This document shows positions 1 through 62,461 of a stretch of 64,000 nucleotides of DNA, in pieces; position 1 is the first letter of the stretch, and every line of letters begins with the position of its first letter. Source of the DNA: Phoronis australis (Eukaryota > Animalia > Phoronida). Below the pieces are notes generated by a model. The model ran no database searches, was not told the origin of the DNA, and saw nothing but the letters and a program-made list of their open reading frames with translations. The stretch lies in the NCBI GenBank assembly GCA_002633005.1, contig NMRA01000106.1, positions 167,655-231,654 of the forward strand, given 5' to 3'. A program made the position numbers and the translations under genes.

Positions 1-352
1 GATATTTGAAGATACACCATCTCTATACCCATGGCAGTGGAAGTTAAATAAAGTTTCAATTGCCGTAGAAATGTCAAATTACATCAGTGCACAATATTGT
101 GAACTTCCAACAGCCAATTTCTGCAGGTAATAACAGTGTCAATTATGATATACCCAGCTTCTCAAAAGAAGAGTTATCAACTTGTGTTTTGCGGGCACTT
201 ATAAAGCAGATCTCTTTTAACAGAGGAGAGCTAAATAGGTCAGATGGAGTTGCCATCTGGCAGGCACCAAGAGAGTTAGTGGTAGTGACAACGGACACCT
301 CTACACCGACAGCTAGGCGAGAGTGGTGTGAGTGCGGATAGTACGAGATTAC

Positions 353-489
353 CGTCTATGTTCAACATCATTTTCCGCCAGCTTGGTCGGATGCTCTGGT
401 GGAAGCCGAACCACACTTCACGGCCACCACCAAGTGGATGGTAGTAGTTGTCTGGTGGTGAGAAGAACGATCGACCAACTGGTGTGTAG
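353..489 (-). CDS. AGO2: Argonaute L1 exon copy B (137 nt, phase 2 to 1)
   Basis: Acceptor ttttattctcctcttatctag and donor G|GTAATC. Encodes (N)[45 protein letters not shown] with no stops. Confidence 0.9.
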
Positions 490-3400
490 CTAGATAAGAG
501 GAGAATAAAAAATGCAGGCAATTAATAGCAGGCAACAAGCGATGAAGCTTACCGTCAATGTTCAGCATCATTTTCCAATGGGACGGCCGGACGCTCTGGT
601 GAAAGCCAAACCAGACCTCGCGCCCACCTCCCAGCGGGTGGTCATAGTTGTCCGGAGGTGAGAAGAATGAACGGCCAACAGGGGTGTACCTGGTTGCAGA
701 CGGAAAAAATAACAGAAGTTTTGTGGGTTAGCAGTCACATGACACAGCACCTCACAGCAGGACGCTGCTTAGTCACACAGACGTTCAGCAAATAGGCCAC
801 ACAGAAGAACACCGACGCAGAATTTTAAACGCTTAGTTAATGAATAAAACGAAATTGAAAAGTGAACCCCAATCAGCTTGTTGCCACAAAGATGAATTCC
901 TGGACTGAAAACATACTAGAGAAATGTTACAAAATGTCATGAATTACGATAAAAATTAAGGGACAACAAAGACCGCTTCTTTCCAGTAACTGTGAACTCC
1001 TAACGAAGGGATACTGGGCTCTTGTCATCAACTCAAAATAACAAATCAAGATCAAGGTCATCATTTGTCAATGGAAGATGTGATATTTGCAAGCTTTAAA
1101 AGTCTCTGTTATCGTACCTGTTCAGCAAATATATCACTAAACATCAATCCCTTGTTTTGAATAGTGCTCCAGTAATCCACCAAAAATCTGCTTCATAACC
1201 CATGTGCTTCCAGACAACCATGGAAAGATACCAAGGAAGGTCTATCAAGAACACCAGACACAATAACTTGACACTGTAAAGACTGACTACTACTGCTATT
1301 AATTTGTTTTTGAACGGATGGCCATTTTCATGTACATGAGGGCAAAGGGAGTGTAACAAGATCTGCATATTTACTTCATGCTGGGAAGATGGCGCATGAT
1401 GACGTCGAGAGCCTGTGTAGCATCAAAGGGTATCTGGCTGACATTCCCCTCAAGAGCCTCGTCGAGGGCATACAAGCTGACCTCGGAGACCCATTTGATG
1501 GAAACTTTGAACACGCGGTCCCGTCCTTCGCCAGGCAGCGTCACTTCTAGGTCCACCTAGAGAAAGAATCGACAACTAAATCACATTCAAATGAAAACAG
1601 TTTTAAAGCAATTCCAATGCGTGTTATCCAGCCTGTGCACAGTTTGGTTACTAGAGCATGCAGTCAATGACTTATTTGACGGCAATGACAGTTCCTTATG
1701 GCTTGAGATCAGGCAGGATACATGGGCTTGCCATGGACAGTCATTTTATGCACTGAGCACGGTTTCAAGCTCTAACCAACCACCAGTTGTTGCCTAGCTC
1801 AGTAATATTTTTTAACCAGAGTAAGGAACAAGTTCAGAACAATTTTATATCTAAGTTTGTAATCTTTGGAGACCAATGGCCAGTTATTGCCACTATATGC
1901 GGAACAAGCTCCACCTGGTGGCAAATCTACTCCATGTTTCAAACACAAACTGTTCATGCACTGCACCCTAATAGGAATACACACAGTAACTGTAACAAAT
2001 ACTGCAATCACCAACCTGGATTACATAAAAAATCCAAAAAAAAATTATGCATTACTTTAGTCCACACCTACCTTTTCCTTCTGAATAGGCAGTGGATCCC
2101 TGCTATAAAGGTTCTTGCGTCCGTCGAACACCGGCTTCTGACCAGCAAAAATTTTCTGAGAGTAGCACTGTACCATAGTATCAATGATCTCTCTGGAAAA
2201 AAGCAATAAACATGTGACACAAGTTTATAAGCACCACACAGCCAACATGGAGTTCACCTAGTTGAAATTCATGGTGAAGAGTTAGTGATGCAGACTGTGT
2301 AAGACAGGAGACCAGGTGGCAGTTGACAGCCCACATTTCCTGCTGCATACTATATTACTAATGGGATGTTTTGCCATGATGAGGAAAAAGTCATTTTTAG
2401 TAATCTCCCGTTCTCCCACACTAAAATATGGCTGTTAAAAAAAGGTTACAGTTCTCATCCACATTATGACAACAGGTAAAAATAGCAAAAAAATTGTCTT
2501 CGACTCAGTTAGTTGTGAAAATCAGACTTAAGACAAAGAACAAATTGGCACAAGGTCCATAAAAGGAACCCCATTTGGGCTGTGAGTGACCAAAAACTTA
2601 GATTAGACAGAAGATCACTTGTACTGATTAATTAAACTAAAGATTTATTAAATAACTTGCTCTTGCCTTTATCAACGGATAACTGTATATCCTTAAACAT
2701 GACTACACTTAGTACACTATACTTTTAAATACATAAGACTACAATATACTCAAACTTCGTGACTTCTCACAAAACTTTTAGCATGACTTCACATCCAACT
2801 AAAAACAAGTATATATCCTTGGAATCCTCAAAGACAGAAACAATTTATCAAGAATGTCACATTTTCGTTTATAATAAATCGAATCGACTGACACTTTTGT
2901 GAACTGAATATTGTCATTTTGGCTTTAAACACAAAATTCTAATATAGCCTGAACACAAGATTACTTTATGTTGAGCTATGTATCCTTACATAACTTTATT
3001 ATGCAGTGAACCGTGACACAGATTTCTGATTTACCCCCAAACAACAGAGATAACAGCTATCAAAGTCCCTTTTAAAACAATGCCCCAATCATTGCTGCTA
3101 AAGAGAAACAAATATCCAAAGCTACTAAAAGCATTGATAATGAAAGTGTTTGAAACCCAAGTGAAATTTACCCTGGTCAACCTTGATGAACATTGTAACT
3201 GTGATAGGTATGACAGAGAAAATGCAACAGAAGTACAATACGCACAAAAACCATTTTTCCACTATACATGATTATCAACCTTAACCAATAAGCAACCATC
3301 TAAAGTTGCTTTTCACCCTGGTTAGGCATTTTACTCTAATCAAATTGGTTTCACAATATTCTTAGCCAGTTACCAACTCAAGTCACAGGTAATGTGTACA

Positions 3401-6400
3401 TGTGCAATTTTCAAATTCACAATTGTAACTCTGAAAAGTTTTCTTGAGTTGCTAATGGTTGCTATGTTCTTGTTGGTAACCACAACAGAATCACATCACA
3501 ATAAATAACTCCCCCTCCCCTTCCCCCAGATTCGATTTTCTTTTTAGCCACCTAAACATGACGAAATGCAGCTATAAACTGTCACATGCTGGGTGAAAAT
3601 CAATGGGTAGAGTCAAGACAGGTGATAGCTGGGTAAAAACACCAGCATTATACTAAGTGAGCATCCACCTGATAACAGTGAACCACTGACCTTTGAAAAA
3701 CAATGAACAGTCAATACAGTAATACCGTAGTGTACTGTAAACTACTGGATATAGGCCTTGGTCGCTCAACTCAGAGATGGGCACTTACAGGAATTTTTTA
3801 AAAAAATCAGGGTTGGGGCTCATCTGCACGAGCGAGCGTTTAACCTGAGCTGGACAGTTGCCCTGGTCACCTATCAGGTTCAACATAGAAGTCCACAGAT
3901 ATAAAGTTCCAAGAATATGTCCCAAAGCCAGTAGTCGACATTTAAGTTGAATCACTGCTCCCTAGCAGACACCAATATTAAACTAAGTATCCAACTTGAA
4001 GTAAGGCACAATAAATACTGGCCCTACACATGAATGTTGTCAATGTCATTAAGAAGCAATGTTAGATTAATTTACAGTAAGTGCAAATCCTCTCCTCTTT
4101 GTTTGCAGTTTACATTTTGCTACTAGAGCTACTGAAAAACTTCAGCTCAACATTTATTCCAGGTTTCCGCATTTGAAAACATGTCTTAATATTATTAAGA
4201 TCAAATGAGTCAAGCAAACAATTATAGACGCACCTTTAATAGGAATTTATCAAAGGTGGAGAGTTGACTCTTGGCCAAGCAGTGGATGCATAATTAGAAA
4301 ATTTCCAAAAGTAGAATTAAGGCGCTTAGATGAGCATGGGTATTAAGCCCAATGTTTACGGTGACTTAATATTGACAAGATAATATACCATTATACCTTG
4401 ACCTTGACAGAAGCAACAGAATTAGTGGTGATAAGAAAAACTGAAAATGATAATCATTTTTAACACACTGTAGTGATTACGCTCATCATATCATTTTTAT
4501 AAGCACTCAATTAAAAACAATTCATCATCCCAAAAGACAAATGAAATGTAAAATGAGGATTTCCGATGGTTTGGACAGGATCTCAATTACTTAGCTATAA
4601 TGCTAATGGACTGTCAACCCACACATGTAGTGGATGACATCATAGGCAGCACTAGATTGAATGACACAACTCTAACAAAAACTGAGAGATGACAAATTTG
4701 TTCCACAACCAGAACTATCACAAATCAAATAGAGGTTGCAATGCCGTGCAGTTACCGAGGAATAAAAATATAAAATAGTAAAACTAGTAAAACTAAAATG
4801 ACGAGCGTCGGTACTAAAACATATTAAAATATCCCCACGTATCGAGCAGTGCGATCTTTCTCAAGGGTGTGCTACAGTACTAGTACAAGTACACCAGAGC
4901 AACACTGTGAAGGATTACAACTAACAACAAACCACTTTTCCTGATATAATAACTAGCAACTTAAGAAAACTGATGGTTTGGAAAACCTCACAAATGTCTC
5001 GGGTTTCCCCTAATGTTCACACCTCCAGGTATTCAAAAGTGATTTAGAACTAAAATTTAATTGTTTAATTAAAAGTGCAGCATAGAGTTATTCCTTTCTT
5101 CCTGCCGGAGTAGTCAGACCACCTGTGCAAAAATCAACATTGGTTGTGCTGTTGTCAGTCGGAAAACACCAGCCCATTTTCTTATCCCTTTAGCAGTTTC
5201 GGGCACCAACAAGTTAACATTACAGACACTAAAATAGTTTAAAACTGTCTGCAAGGTGGCAGAACATGTTTAACACGTCTGAAAACAGGAAGGTCTTGCC
5301 ATTTGCTTAACTGAAACCTATTTGCCTAATTTAATGAAAATCTGTCAAGGATCTCCCGACGACACAGAGGTAAATGTAAAAACTAAAATTCCTACTTCTA
5401 GGGGACAAATCGGCAGTCAAATGCATCTGAAAGTAGTTATCACACCAAGATCTTGCAAAGGGTTAAGGAAATACAGCCACGGACGAAAAAAACCCCACAA
5501 AACTGCCACTAGGGGTGCCACAGTAGCTAGACCCATCCAAAATAATGGTCATTTCTGCAGAAAGTCATCTGCAACAATCATAATGATCCTTCAAATAGTT
5601 TGATAAATGCGGGATGCCAAAAACATTCTTAAATACTAAAAATGGCCACGGAGTGTAGTCTCCTTAATAAAATCCTATTCATTTAGTCAAACTGCATGTA
5701 AACCCATTAAAGAACTCTGAAAAACAGAAACAAACATCGAAATAGTAAAAATGACACAGGAGGGCACAGCAGTAGTTTGATGCAAATAAAAGTCGTCACC
5801 ATCTGACATCATCGCCATAAAAACACGTCTACCACCTTTCAGGGGGATCCCTTCATGGGAGTTGGAAGATGCAGCTGCGGAAGACCAGACAGAGTTGACA
5901 GCAATATGCACCCACATTATTAGAAAATTCAGGACAGAGGACAGGAAAGCAGGAGAATTACTGTGATTATGGAGTCAGCTCAGGGAATTGGGAGAGGAAA
6001 CAATGGGCTAAGAAGGTAATTACACAAAATTGAGAAATCACAATCCCAGCAGATCGGAAACATAATTATTACTATGACAACCATGACACCTCTGTTCATT
6101 AAATGTCACACAAGAGTTGCCATACATAACTTCCATAACTGGACTAATAAGTAACTTTATGAAACATGATATGCCAACAGATGTGATCCCAGCAGGAAAA
6201 AATTCTGCAAGTACCCACAGAAACTCCACTGTATTTTGCAAGGTTTCCAAACCCATTGTGCCAGGCACACTTAGTATATAAAAGTCAGCCTAAAAGTGTT
6301 TGGACAATGAAAACTAATCCACTCCTGTGAGATTCTAACAATAATAATAATAATAATAATAGTAACCTTGTAAGGGATTTGAAAGGTGAACGAAGTAAAT

Positions 6401-9400
6401 TCACTTTCATAATTTAGATTAACAAGAAATCCAAGCAATAATTGTTCATTCAAATAAAGTTGACCTAGTTTCTCGCACTTTGAGAACCAGTTTTCTCCAC
6501 TCAACAATGGCAATCAACCTGGTTACCAAAATGTGGGACTCCTGTAAATAACTATTGCCCAAGGAGTTTTACAGCCTCTATTTCATTTTTATGCGCCCAC
6601 ATATTTATATGTGGTCACATATTGCCGTCATCTCTGTCTGGGCATCCGGCGCAGGCAGCTGTATCTCCTAAACCCCTCACAGGATCTCAATGAGATTTGA
6701 CAGATGTGTTCGATGGATGACAACAAATTTTGGACCTCTCCAACTACCGGTGTGCCATCTAGTGGCACTTTTAATTTTTTAACTTTTCCTCTGTATCTTT
6801 GGAGGTCCTCATCTGATTTTTGTAAACTTTGGCAGTTAGTTATCTATTGGTGAGATGATGCCAGCCTCCCATTTTCGAACGGATTCGATGTACTTTGCAC
6901 CACCTGACCTAGTGCCCATTTTTACCGTCTTAATCCGCCCTTCTATCAACCAAACAGCTCTGGGTAGGATTTTGAAAATTATATGTTTTTACTGTGAAGA
7001 GGGTGGCTGGCGACAATTTTCTGACGACTTCGACAGTGACGCCTCCTACCAGCAGTTTCGTTTTTTTTTGCGCCCATGGCTGTTTCTCCTAAACCGTTTG
7101 CAGGATCTTTTACCAATCGTAGCAGGTATATTTATGTGATATTGACAATGGATGACGATGACTTTCGCATGGATTGGACTATGGTTGCACCCCCTAGTGG
7201 CAATTTCAGTTTCTTACGTTTACCTCTGTATCTTCAAAGGTCCTAAATGGATTTTTTGTAAACTTTGGCAGATAAGCATCTATTGAGATGATGCTATCCT
7301 CCTGTTTTCAGATGTATTCCAGACAATTTGCGCCATCTAGTGGACATTTTTACTGTTTTCAAGTCTGTTTCAACCAGTGAAAGTTGTCATGCATGTTCTT
7401 ACTAAGAGGGGAATGGCTCACGAAGGTTTTCTGACGACTTTAACTACTGTGGTGCCACCTAGAGGCAGTTTTGTTTTTTGTGCCCATGGCTATATCTCCT
7501 AAACCATTGACAGGATCTTTATTATATTTAGCAAGTGTATTTATATGGTGTCCACCTCTCTATCAACCAAACCATTCTAAGGATGATTTTGAAAATTGTC
7601 GTATATGTTCTCCGAGTGATGAGGAGGGTTGACGATGACGACTTTGAATACTGTGGCACCTCCTAGTGGTAGTTTTGTATTGCGCCCATAGCTGAATCTC
7701 CTAAACCTACAGCAGGATCTTTATTAAACTTAGTAAGTGTATTTATATGAAGCTAAGGATAGACGCCAACTTTCAGGCGGACGCTGTGCCCCTTTGTGGC
7801 AATTTCTTTTCTTTCGTTTTCCTGTGTTTCTCTGAAGTTCCTTGACAGATTTTTAAAAAATTTAGTGAATAGCTTTCTATTAAAGAAGTCGTGGCATGTT
7901 CCGTTTTCAGATGGATTGGATGTTTTGCGCCATCTAGTGGCCATTTTTAGGATACAAGTAAACAACTTTAGAAACACACATTTTGTGGTGCATTTGTGGG
8001 TGCATTTCAACGCTCTTGGTTGCTCTTGTTATTTTCACAGTTGTCCTGACCTCAATCTGAAAGCGTTGTTTTTCGGAGACCCTGTGTTTATCAATTAGCC
8101 CAAAACTACAATGACAAAGACACCTAGCGTTTATTAACATCTGAAGTTAAGGTATCCTTAAGGCTCCTCTATAAGAAAGCTGGCTTCTTATAGTAGCTTA
8201 ATCCCATAAGAGTTACTGCAAACACTAGAAGGGATAACTTGACATCCTATTTACCGCACCATACATCGACTTTACGATTGGTATTAGAAGTCAGGCATCC
8301 CCTAAACTTACCGGTTTACTCTCCTTGGACATTTGTCTGGTGTGATTGAGATGTCATAGTGATGGATGATTCCTTTAGGCATGCGTACCATGAAGTGGTT
8401 CGCCCGCAGGGAGATGGTGCGGCCCTCTTGACCAAAGTCTGGTCGGCGGGGACATTCCAAAGGCCGTGGAGCTGCAACTTGAACCACAAAAATATGTAAG
8501 CACTTCAAGCTATTTGGGAAGTAAATCAATGATGTACATGATCCATGAAATTACCTGTTAATGTTGATACATTTCCCAGGGATTTCCAATGAGCTCCAAG
8601 AATATCAGTATGTTATTTTATACGACATACTCTTAAGAAATGGCATGAGCAATAATTCCATTTTAGGCCTCAGAAGTGGGTTTCTCCTATAGTAACATAG
8701 AGGGCCATACCCAAAGTGACAGAAAAGCGGGGCCCTCAATATTAAAGTAGGAAAGGGGCACTTTTGAAGCTCGGAATTGAATTTCCTGCCTAAGTCAATT
8801 TTATACTGTTGAATGACCCTCTTGGAATGAGGTTCAAAAACGTTACATGGAGCTTTTCCAGGTTTGTGCATGTCTTGCACACAGTGTTCTCCACAACAAA
8901 AATTCGACGCAAATATTTTCGTTAGTAGTGATCACTGTTCATTCCCTGACAACATGGTTAAAATAACATTGCTGGCTAGTCAATTATTAAGGTAAGGTAC
9001 CTGACACCATAAAATTATGTTAGAAAAAGAATTTCTTTAGATTTTTTAGCAATAATTTACACTCCATTATTACAAAAATTAGGTCATATATGTATTAGGA
9101 ACTATGGCTGATGTTGGCTACTTCACCCTCATTGTTGATTCTGAGGGCAAAAGTGCCAAGCCAGCCGAAGTTTTAACTTGTCACGCCACTTTTCAAGCTC
9201 GACGCGTATTCTCCAAACTCGACGCAGCAAAATTTAAACTCGTTGCCGCGTCGAGTCAAAACTGGCCATGGAGAACACTGCTTGCACATGGAACATATAA
9301 CATTTATATCATTAAAAGGACCGTTGAAATAAATTATTGTTTTTCAATCAGGCACAATGGCCAGAAATAACAGATTATGAAAGAGTCCCAATGGGACAGT

Positions 9401-24902: not shown

Positions 24903-25715
24903 TCATGCTATAAGAAGTGAAGAACATGTCAGGCAACCATCTGCCTTCGCCAATTCGGTGGTATCTAATGCAATTCGGCGATGTTTGTTGTAGGATTGCA
25001 AAGTCTTCCAACTTTTTGGTGCAACAATTTCACTCTGATGTACGACCGTGCCGTTTATGAACAGAACGTTGCTAGCCACGTTTTCTTCAACCTCAAAAAA
25101 TTCATAAGAAAATTTGGCTTTCTCCTTGAGTTGCCTTTTAAGGTCTTGTCCGCTTTCTGACTTACTAATTGCGATGGTTTCGTGACTGATCATGGACATA
25201 ACAGATTTAAGATGGAGTCCATTTTCAGGGACTACAAGACTCGTCACGTGATATCTCGGAAATGCTTTCGCCAGAGCATCCACGCCTGCTTCGTTTGTGC
25301 GCTTTGAGATCCCAACGAAGATTTCTCGCCCGCTAAACATAACATCGCCACCTTCGATCGTAGCATTAAGGTCATCAACATCGACCACCTTCAAACACAA
25401 AGGATTCTCGCCAAGAAATCGTCGTGCGTCCACCTCCTCGCCAGCACGGCTTTTGGCGCCCGGGCGACAAATCATGGCTGTTTTGTCGATGACCACGGCG
25501 ACGTCTTCAACAAAGACACAGTCGGGGTATTCTTCTTTGGCTGGTACATCAATTATTTGTAATCCAAGGCCTTTCAAAGTTGCCACATAGTTTTCATGTT
25601 GTTTTCTTGCTTTTTCAATAACTATGTCCGATTCGTTGCTAGAACGTATACACATAGTTTTAAAGCTGTTTGGAATGCCTCTGACTACAGCGTAACGGTA
25701 CTGAAACGAAGCCAT
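24903..25715 (-). CDS. DDAH1: N(G),N(G)-dimethylarginine dimethylaminohydrolase (DDAH), about 270 aa, single coding exon
   Basis: Uninterrupted ORF from the ATG at 25715 (MASFQYRYAVVRG) with PDCVFVED, RPGA.SR.GE, GGDVMFSGREIFVGISKRTN, LHLKS (catalytic His) and DGCLTCSS (catalytic Cys). Confidence 0.95.
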   Translation of the reverse strand: MASFQYRYAVVRGIPNSFKTMCIRSSNESDIVIEKARKQHENYVATLKGLGLQIIDVPAKEEYPDCVFVEDVAVVIDKTAMICRPGAKSRAGEEVDARRFLGENPLCLKVVDVDDLNATIEGGDVMFSGREIFVGISKRTNEAGVDALAKAFPRYHVTSLVVPENGLHLKSVMSMISHETIAISKSESGQDLKRQLKEKAKFSYEFFEVEENVASNVLFINGTVVHQSEIVAPKSWKTLQSYNKHRRIALDTTELAKADGCLTCSSLLIA

Positions 25716-25821
25716 CGTATTGAAACCTACGGCCAGTGACATAAGGAGTTGCTGTGGTACAGGGTGTCGGAGCACCTGATATCATAACCTCCTGCACGGA
25801 CGCTCATTACCAGCAATACGT

Positions 25822-48227: not shown

Positions 48228-62461
<14,234 letters not shown>

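Follow-up and report, generated by a model that had tools for sequence, protein, structure and literature searches.

Two alternatively used L1-linker exons in an Argonaute gene of Phoronis australis and a predicted RNA stem over the donor of the first

Spliced RNA reads showed that a microRNA-class Argonaute gene of Phoronis australis has two versions of the exon that encodes its L1 linker. These exons, called A and B in the following, are true alternatives, each used alone and not together with the other. In our preferred reading, which draws on predicted RNA folding and to which we would give not quite an even chance, a short intron between the exons and a frameshift would together give exclusivity, and a stem between an element in the upstream intron (U) and one in the A-B intron (I) would loop out A, hide its donor and likely favour B. 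The window analysed is one stretch of 64,000 nt, and its positions 1-8500 on the minus strand hold the 5′ part of this gene, which runs off the window start.

Results

The nearest named proteins to this Argonaute came from molluscs, nemerteans and bryozoans, and no deuterostome invertebrate was present among its named protein matches. All features of the locus lie on the minus strand. The constitutive upstream exon at 1375..1556 encodes the end of the N domain (...RHLPSM), is present here in one copy and is joined in RNA to position 2071 on its upstream side and to either A or B on its downstream side. It is followed by the upstream intron (690-1374, 685 nt), exon A (553..689, 137 nt), the A-B intron, whose length of 63 nt was confirmed (552-490), and exon B (353..489, 137 nt). 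Both exons have their joints in RNA, and both encode the L1 segment that corresponds to residues 174-218 of human AGO2. Exon A may use as branch site a CUAAC-like sequence at 724..732, whose adenosine (728) precedes the acceptor by 38 nt.

Equal length, equal phase and intact AG/GT ends mark A and B as tandem duplicates. Exon A encodes an ancestral-type peptide; exon B has 78% identity to A and differs in four internal residues and in the junction residue. At the codon level 23 differences are synonymous and 4 non-synonymous, and four-fold sites are saturated (4/19 alike), which suggests an old copy with both exons under protein-level selection. Codons 37-38 read Trp-Arg in exon B and His-Trp in exon A. 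The second of these positions, which is residue 211 of human AGO2, is Trp in all 38 of the other distinct peptides compared, and is Arg in exon B. An exon of 137 nt does not hold a whole number of codons, so including both exons or skipping both shifts the reading frame.

Alternative use of the exons was measured in three stranded RNA runs labelled with the species of the DNA, of which about a fifth each was read, and a splice joint was counted when a run had at least 3 reads for it. Joints from the upstream exon to A had 5, 5 and 13 reads and those to B had 5, 8 and 17; joints to the next exon, which is the same for both, had 9, 4 and 6 reads from A and 10, 6 and 31 from B. Use of exon B equalled or exceeded that of A, and the A/B ratio at the upstream joint was near 1:1 to 1:2 in all three runs, and so showed no regulation. 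At the same threshold, no joint from A to B and no joint of any kind inside 259-888 was found in the three runs, and hence the mutual exclusivity that the preliminary description had assumed is borne out by RNA. The A-B intron itself had read depths of 0, 0 and 2, being retained in about one fragment and never seen spliced. Sense reads also covered the flanking introns 1-352 and 690-1374 at depths of 1-4, and intron 1557-2071 had none; these reads come from few fragments and are consistent with slower removal of the two flanking introns.

The preliminary description, made from the sequence alone, had reported that 885-876 in the upstream intron is perfectly complementary to 540-531 in the A-B intron, with a further pairing of 874-872 with 543-541, and both matches are present as it gave them. 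The spacing upstream of exon A, put there at about 190 nt, is 187 nt when counted from 876. However, the duplex is longer than first described: the docking-like element U at 862..885, of which 885-876 is the core, is predicted to pair with I at 531..552, the 22 nt with which the A-B intron begins, through 21 pairs (three of them G-U) that reach the GU of the exon A donor. The predicted energy of this duplex is -26.6 kcal/mol, compared with -16.3 for the core, and -7.7 to -8.6 when opening costs are taken into account. As had been anticipated, a 10-bp match is by itself only moderately unlikely, a perfect run of at least 10 occurring in 2.45% of 2000 shuffles of the 685-nt upstream intron against the A-B intron.

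The extended duplex is rarer. Its energy was equalled by 1 of 300 shuffles and by 0 of 60 when both sides were windowed; among same-geometry natural stretches of the window it was equalled by 8/269, or 2/188 when GC-matched, a natural null of 1-3% that should be read with several region pairs having been examined. The donors of 32 distinct orthologous loci (24 of 56 were left out as too short or duplicate) were also compared with their own upstream 685 nt, and none reached -26.6 (mean -15.3, SD 3.0, closest -25.3). With the same upstream intron, the exon B donor gave only -14.2. The geometry agrees with the earlier proposal that the duplex would loop out exon A, and it would in addition cover the A donor with a pairing stronger than chance. 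Pairing with U1 is predicted at -8.2 for the exon A donor and at -5.3 for the exon B donor. The U-I stem, if it forms, would hide the exon A donor and likely tilt the choice toward B. Rfam gave 0 matches in window positions 1-2400.

Predicted occupancy of the stem depends on the region that is folded. In region 240-900, whose folding the preliminary description had proposed as a check, the pair probability of U-I was 0.87, which supports the pairing. The total folding energy of the region was ordinary (z -0.15). Probabilities of 0.93, 0.23 and 0.04 were obtained for regions 1-1000, 1-1556 and 480-1400. In sampled structures, region 1-1374 had the stem in 487/500, and regions 240-1400 and 353-1374 had it in 20-25/500 at 37 °C. 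Two structures compete with U-I in predicted folds, a local hairpin over the exon A donor and a helix formed by a second upstream element. This second element, U2, was absent from the preliminary description. It is a 12-nt AU-rich sequence at 1293..1304, 70 nt past the upstream donor, and is a perfect complement of 531-520 in the A-B intron, called I2, a match found in 0.05-0.1% of 2000 shuffles. The U2-I2 duplex has a predicted energy of -12.6 (net -7.9), would span the best candidate branch site of exon B and abuts the U-I pairing at nt 531. The upstream intron also contains an exact 12-nt direct repeat at 783-794 and 1120-1131.

A third element, D, lies downstream of exon B at 260..274. The identity of 11/12 that had been described between 260-271 and 528-539 (read on the plus strand) holds, and extends to 13/15 over 260-274 and 528-542, a likeness above chance with p of 0.001-0.065 depending on how the test is framed. 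D is a poor partner of U. It contains the third of three UGCCUGC copies that lie on the transcript strand around exon B (534, 520 and 266; the first two in the A-B intron), out of 9 over both strands of the window. Such a triple occurred in 1.3% of shuffles and in 22/294 natural stretches. YGCY, which is the MBNL motif, has a density of 63/kb in the A-B intron compared with a background of 10/kb. D is more likely a protein-binding motif or a chance likeness than a selector. One DNA contig over U, I and D showed no sequence difference. Just past D, a stable local hairpin of 7 bp is predicted at 241-259 (pair probability 0.91-0.99).

Scanning metagenomes for the end of the exon recovered 56 animal loci, many of them near-duplicates of two gene types, and none of the 56 had two full exons. 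Both flanking exons were present in 20 loci, 11 of which had a single exon and 9 a partial extra copy. The 9-mer of U occurred in 0/56 loci and that of I in two, at unrelated places. Scanning of prokaryote genomes for the exon gave 0 matches. For the frame that runs from A through the intron into B, no relative with such a layout was found among 120 listed of 436 matches, and a pattern search of the collected proteins for traces of out-of-frame exons found none. Within a gene, the isoforms annotated in molluscs, nemerteans and bryozoans were invariant at this exon, among the members listed. Since none of the 56 loci has two full exons and the annotated isoforms are invariant, the duplication looks lineage-restricted among the animals sampled, as far as these sequence comparisons reach.

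Variants of oyster and sea hare were considered as isoforms of this exon and were rejected, as the exon was identical within a gene in every species group examined (at most 15 members listed per cluster); in oyster, the variant form belongs to a second gene. Bivalve Argonaute isoforms (P0049/P0319, P0276/P0278, P0305/P0280, P0318/P0325) come with either of two forms of the preceding exon, which encodes the end of the N domain and is single here, and this is apparently an independent alternative exon pair. In 17/56 loci, all of one Argonaute type (for example L002:2268-3027, gene-oriented), a conserved 78-nt partial copy of the first half of the L1 exon sits upstream of a full, slightly longer copy of that exon, and may be an in-frame insert or a cassette exon from a separate duplication of the L1 exon. 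The literature listings surveyed contained no account of Argonaute L1 exons that are used in a mutually exclusive way. According to PMC3510085, isoforms of shrimp Ago1 differ through insertions at other places.

Discussion

In the mechanism that we tentatively prefer, exclusivity would come from two steps: the 63-nt intron would be too short for A-to-B splicing for steric reasons, and frameshifted double or skipped products would be removed by nonsense-mediated decay. Introns of 63 nt are spliced in many invertebrates, which speaks against the steric step; decay by itself also predicts the absence of A-B joints. In the A-B intron, the candidate branch adenosines that leave enough space for a pyrimidine tract are all found 27-47 nt past the exon A donor (27, 30, 31, 40 and 47 nt), below a branch-to-donor threshold of about 50 nt (PMC7969005), and a steric block may hence act here, though this threshold is from vertebrates and may not be that of this animal. 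The choice itself would likely be tilted by the U-I stem, which would loop out A, mask its donor from U1 and bring the upstream intron beside the B acceptor, and so would offset the head start and stronger U1 match of A in favour of B. When the stem is unformed, A would be used, being transcribed first and having the better U1 match. D would have no pairing role. The shift of stem occupancy with the folded region and a net energy of only about -8 count against the U-I stem. For Drosophila serpent (srp), PMC4691838 reports from compensatory-mutant minigenes that stem I increases use of the downstream exon, and that this effect is lost without stem II. No srp-like stem II was found in the 352 nt of the downstream intron that lie inside the window (76% of 100 shuffles were as good), which counts against the preferred reading.

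The mechanism class is already known, and the pairing here is predicted and unproven. In the two-exon cluster of Dscam1 exon 17.1/17.2, steric hindrance and RNA secondary structure were reportedly both found to act in experiments by Yue et al. in 2013. Our locus would resemble that cluster, since steric and structural control are both predicted here. The closest structural likeness is to srp exon 4.1/4.2, where there are also two exons and an element of the upstream intron pairs between them, loops out the first and favours the second (PMC4691838, Yue et al. 2016). Stem I of srp is described as having 21 bp over about 450 nt (PMC6027157), and here the upstream intron is predicted to pair with the intervening intron through 21 pairs over about 350 nt. 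However, srp is reported to have four conserved elements, a stem II to a downstream docking site and compensatory mutants (PMC4691838), whereas here the stem is predicted, it covers the donor itself, the intervening intron has only 63 nt and no stem II is seen in 352 nt.

In human ATE1 7a/7b, an upstream element likewise pairs between the exons, and elements overlap splice sites; the difference is that in ATE1 the middle element is contested by two others that resemble each other, and pairing itself blocks double inclusion, according to PMC7797038. Here it is the middle element that resembles the downstream one, and the latter pairs poorly. Exons 4a/4b of OGDH are described as sterically exclusive, with branch points 25-41 nt from the donor, mapped and distant in a longer intron (PMC7969005), whereas our branch points are candidates at 27-47 nt in an intron that is simply short. 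The Dscam1 exon 6 cluster shares a docking-like site upstream, with a partner just upstream of the favoured exon, and differs in that our locus has one competent selector and two exons rather than 48 (PMC6071210, PMC4691838). A docking/selector system has at least two well-pairing selectors and leaves one exon outside each loop. Here I alone pairs above chance, and a U-I loop leaves B outside and a U-D loop neither exon. With a single competent selector, the locus falls outside the competing docking/selector class, though it is loop-out-like.

The preliminary description had proposed that class for it, with U as the single docking site and I and D as its rival selectors. The 13/15 likeness of D to I, with p of 0.001-0.022, favours this, U and D can be drawn as an imperfect extended duplex of -22.6, and duplication of an exon with its stem arm is a route to competing selectors according to PMC6071210. 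However, both differences between D and I break pairs (G-C to U-C and U-A to G-A), and shuffled downstream sequence paired equally well with U in 23-55% of 300 trials. The U-D core reaches -8.6 compared with -16.3 for U-I, the net energy is -0.9 to -2.5 compared with -7.7 to -8.6, and U-D appeared in 0-22 of 500 sampled structures. The positions of I and D relative to their donors also do not correspond (about +9 vs +78), D is transcribed after I, the stronger partner, and a U-D loop would take out both exons and choose neither. Hence we regard Dscam1-type competition as highly improbable at this locus, where a 63-nt intron together with a frameshift offers a less elaborate source of exclusivity.

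It is possible, though we rather doubt it, that RNA pairing is irrelevant, that the short intron and decay give exclusivity, that proteins bound at the YGCY/UGCCUGC cluster set the ratio, and that U-I arose by chance. The cluster around exon B would explain the likeness of I and D without pairing, and neutral intron remnants of the duplication should be gone given the saturated four-fold sites. GCCUG and GCUUG are secondary motifs bound by Rbfox, and RBFOX1 competes with MBNL1 at GCCUG (bioRxiv 10.1101/840272). The unstable occupancy of U-I across folds points the same way. However, the UGCCUGC triple is just modestly rare, and the U-I stem is rarer than the triple under most controls and falls exactly on the donor. 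Protein binding is also compatible with the stem, and both may hold. Another reading takes the A-B intron as a switch, in which U would hide the A donor and favour B, and U2 would hide the B branch site and favour A. Two perfect runs of at least 10 nt to one 63-nt intron occurred in 0-0.1% of 2000 shuffles, the two helices abut and have similar net energies, and sampled folds flip between U-I, U2-I2 and the local hairpin with region and temperature, all of which suit a switch. Set against this, the helices are nested and coexist in 156/500 samples at 25 °C, so they need not compete; moreover, U2-I2 is AU-rich and weaker, and the branch site of exon B is only a candidate. We think such a switch unlikely. 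The same improbability attaches to its boldest form, a three-state RNA switch in a 63-nt intron that, with two upstream docking sites, would toggle Argonaute between two L1 linkers, one without the invariant Trp.

The L1 segment includes F180, L190 and G199 of AGO1, and PMC12646310 links disease variants of these residues to impaired ejection of the passenger strand. By making two L1 versions, one with Arg in place of a Trp that is invariant elsewhere, a single gene could tune microRNA loading. Should the stem that we prefer work, the locus would be a non-insect case of structure-guided exon choice through donor hiding; if the switch were true, Argonaute would be toggled in a region governing passenger-strand ejection.

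Some other features of the window were noted. At 1761-1920 on the plus strand, a few antisense reads (about 5 of X6 and 1 of X8) match from 1819 with two differences and have an unrelated continuation; they likely come from a repeat transcribed elsewhere. On the minus strand, 24906-25781 holds a single-exon reading frame of 292 codons, which we take to be a dimethylarginine dimethylaminohydrolase, and exons at 49900-62300 presumably belong to a class III alcohol dehydrogenase.
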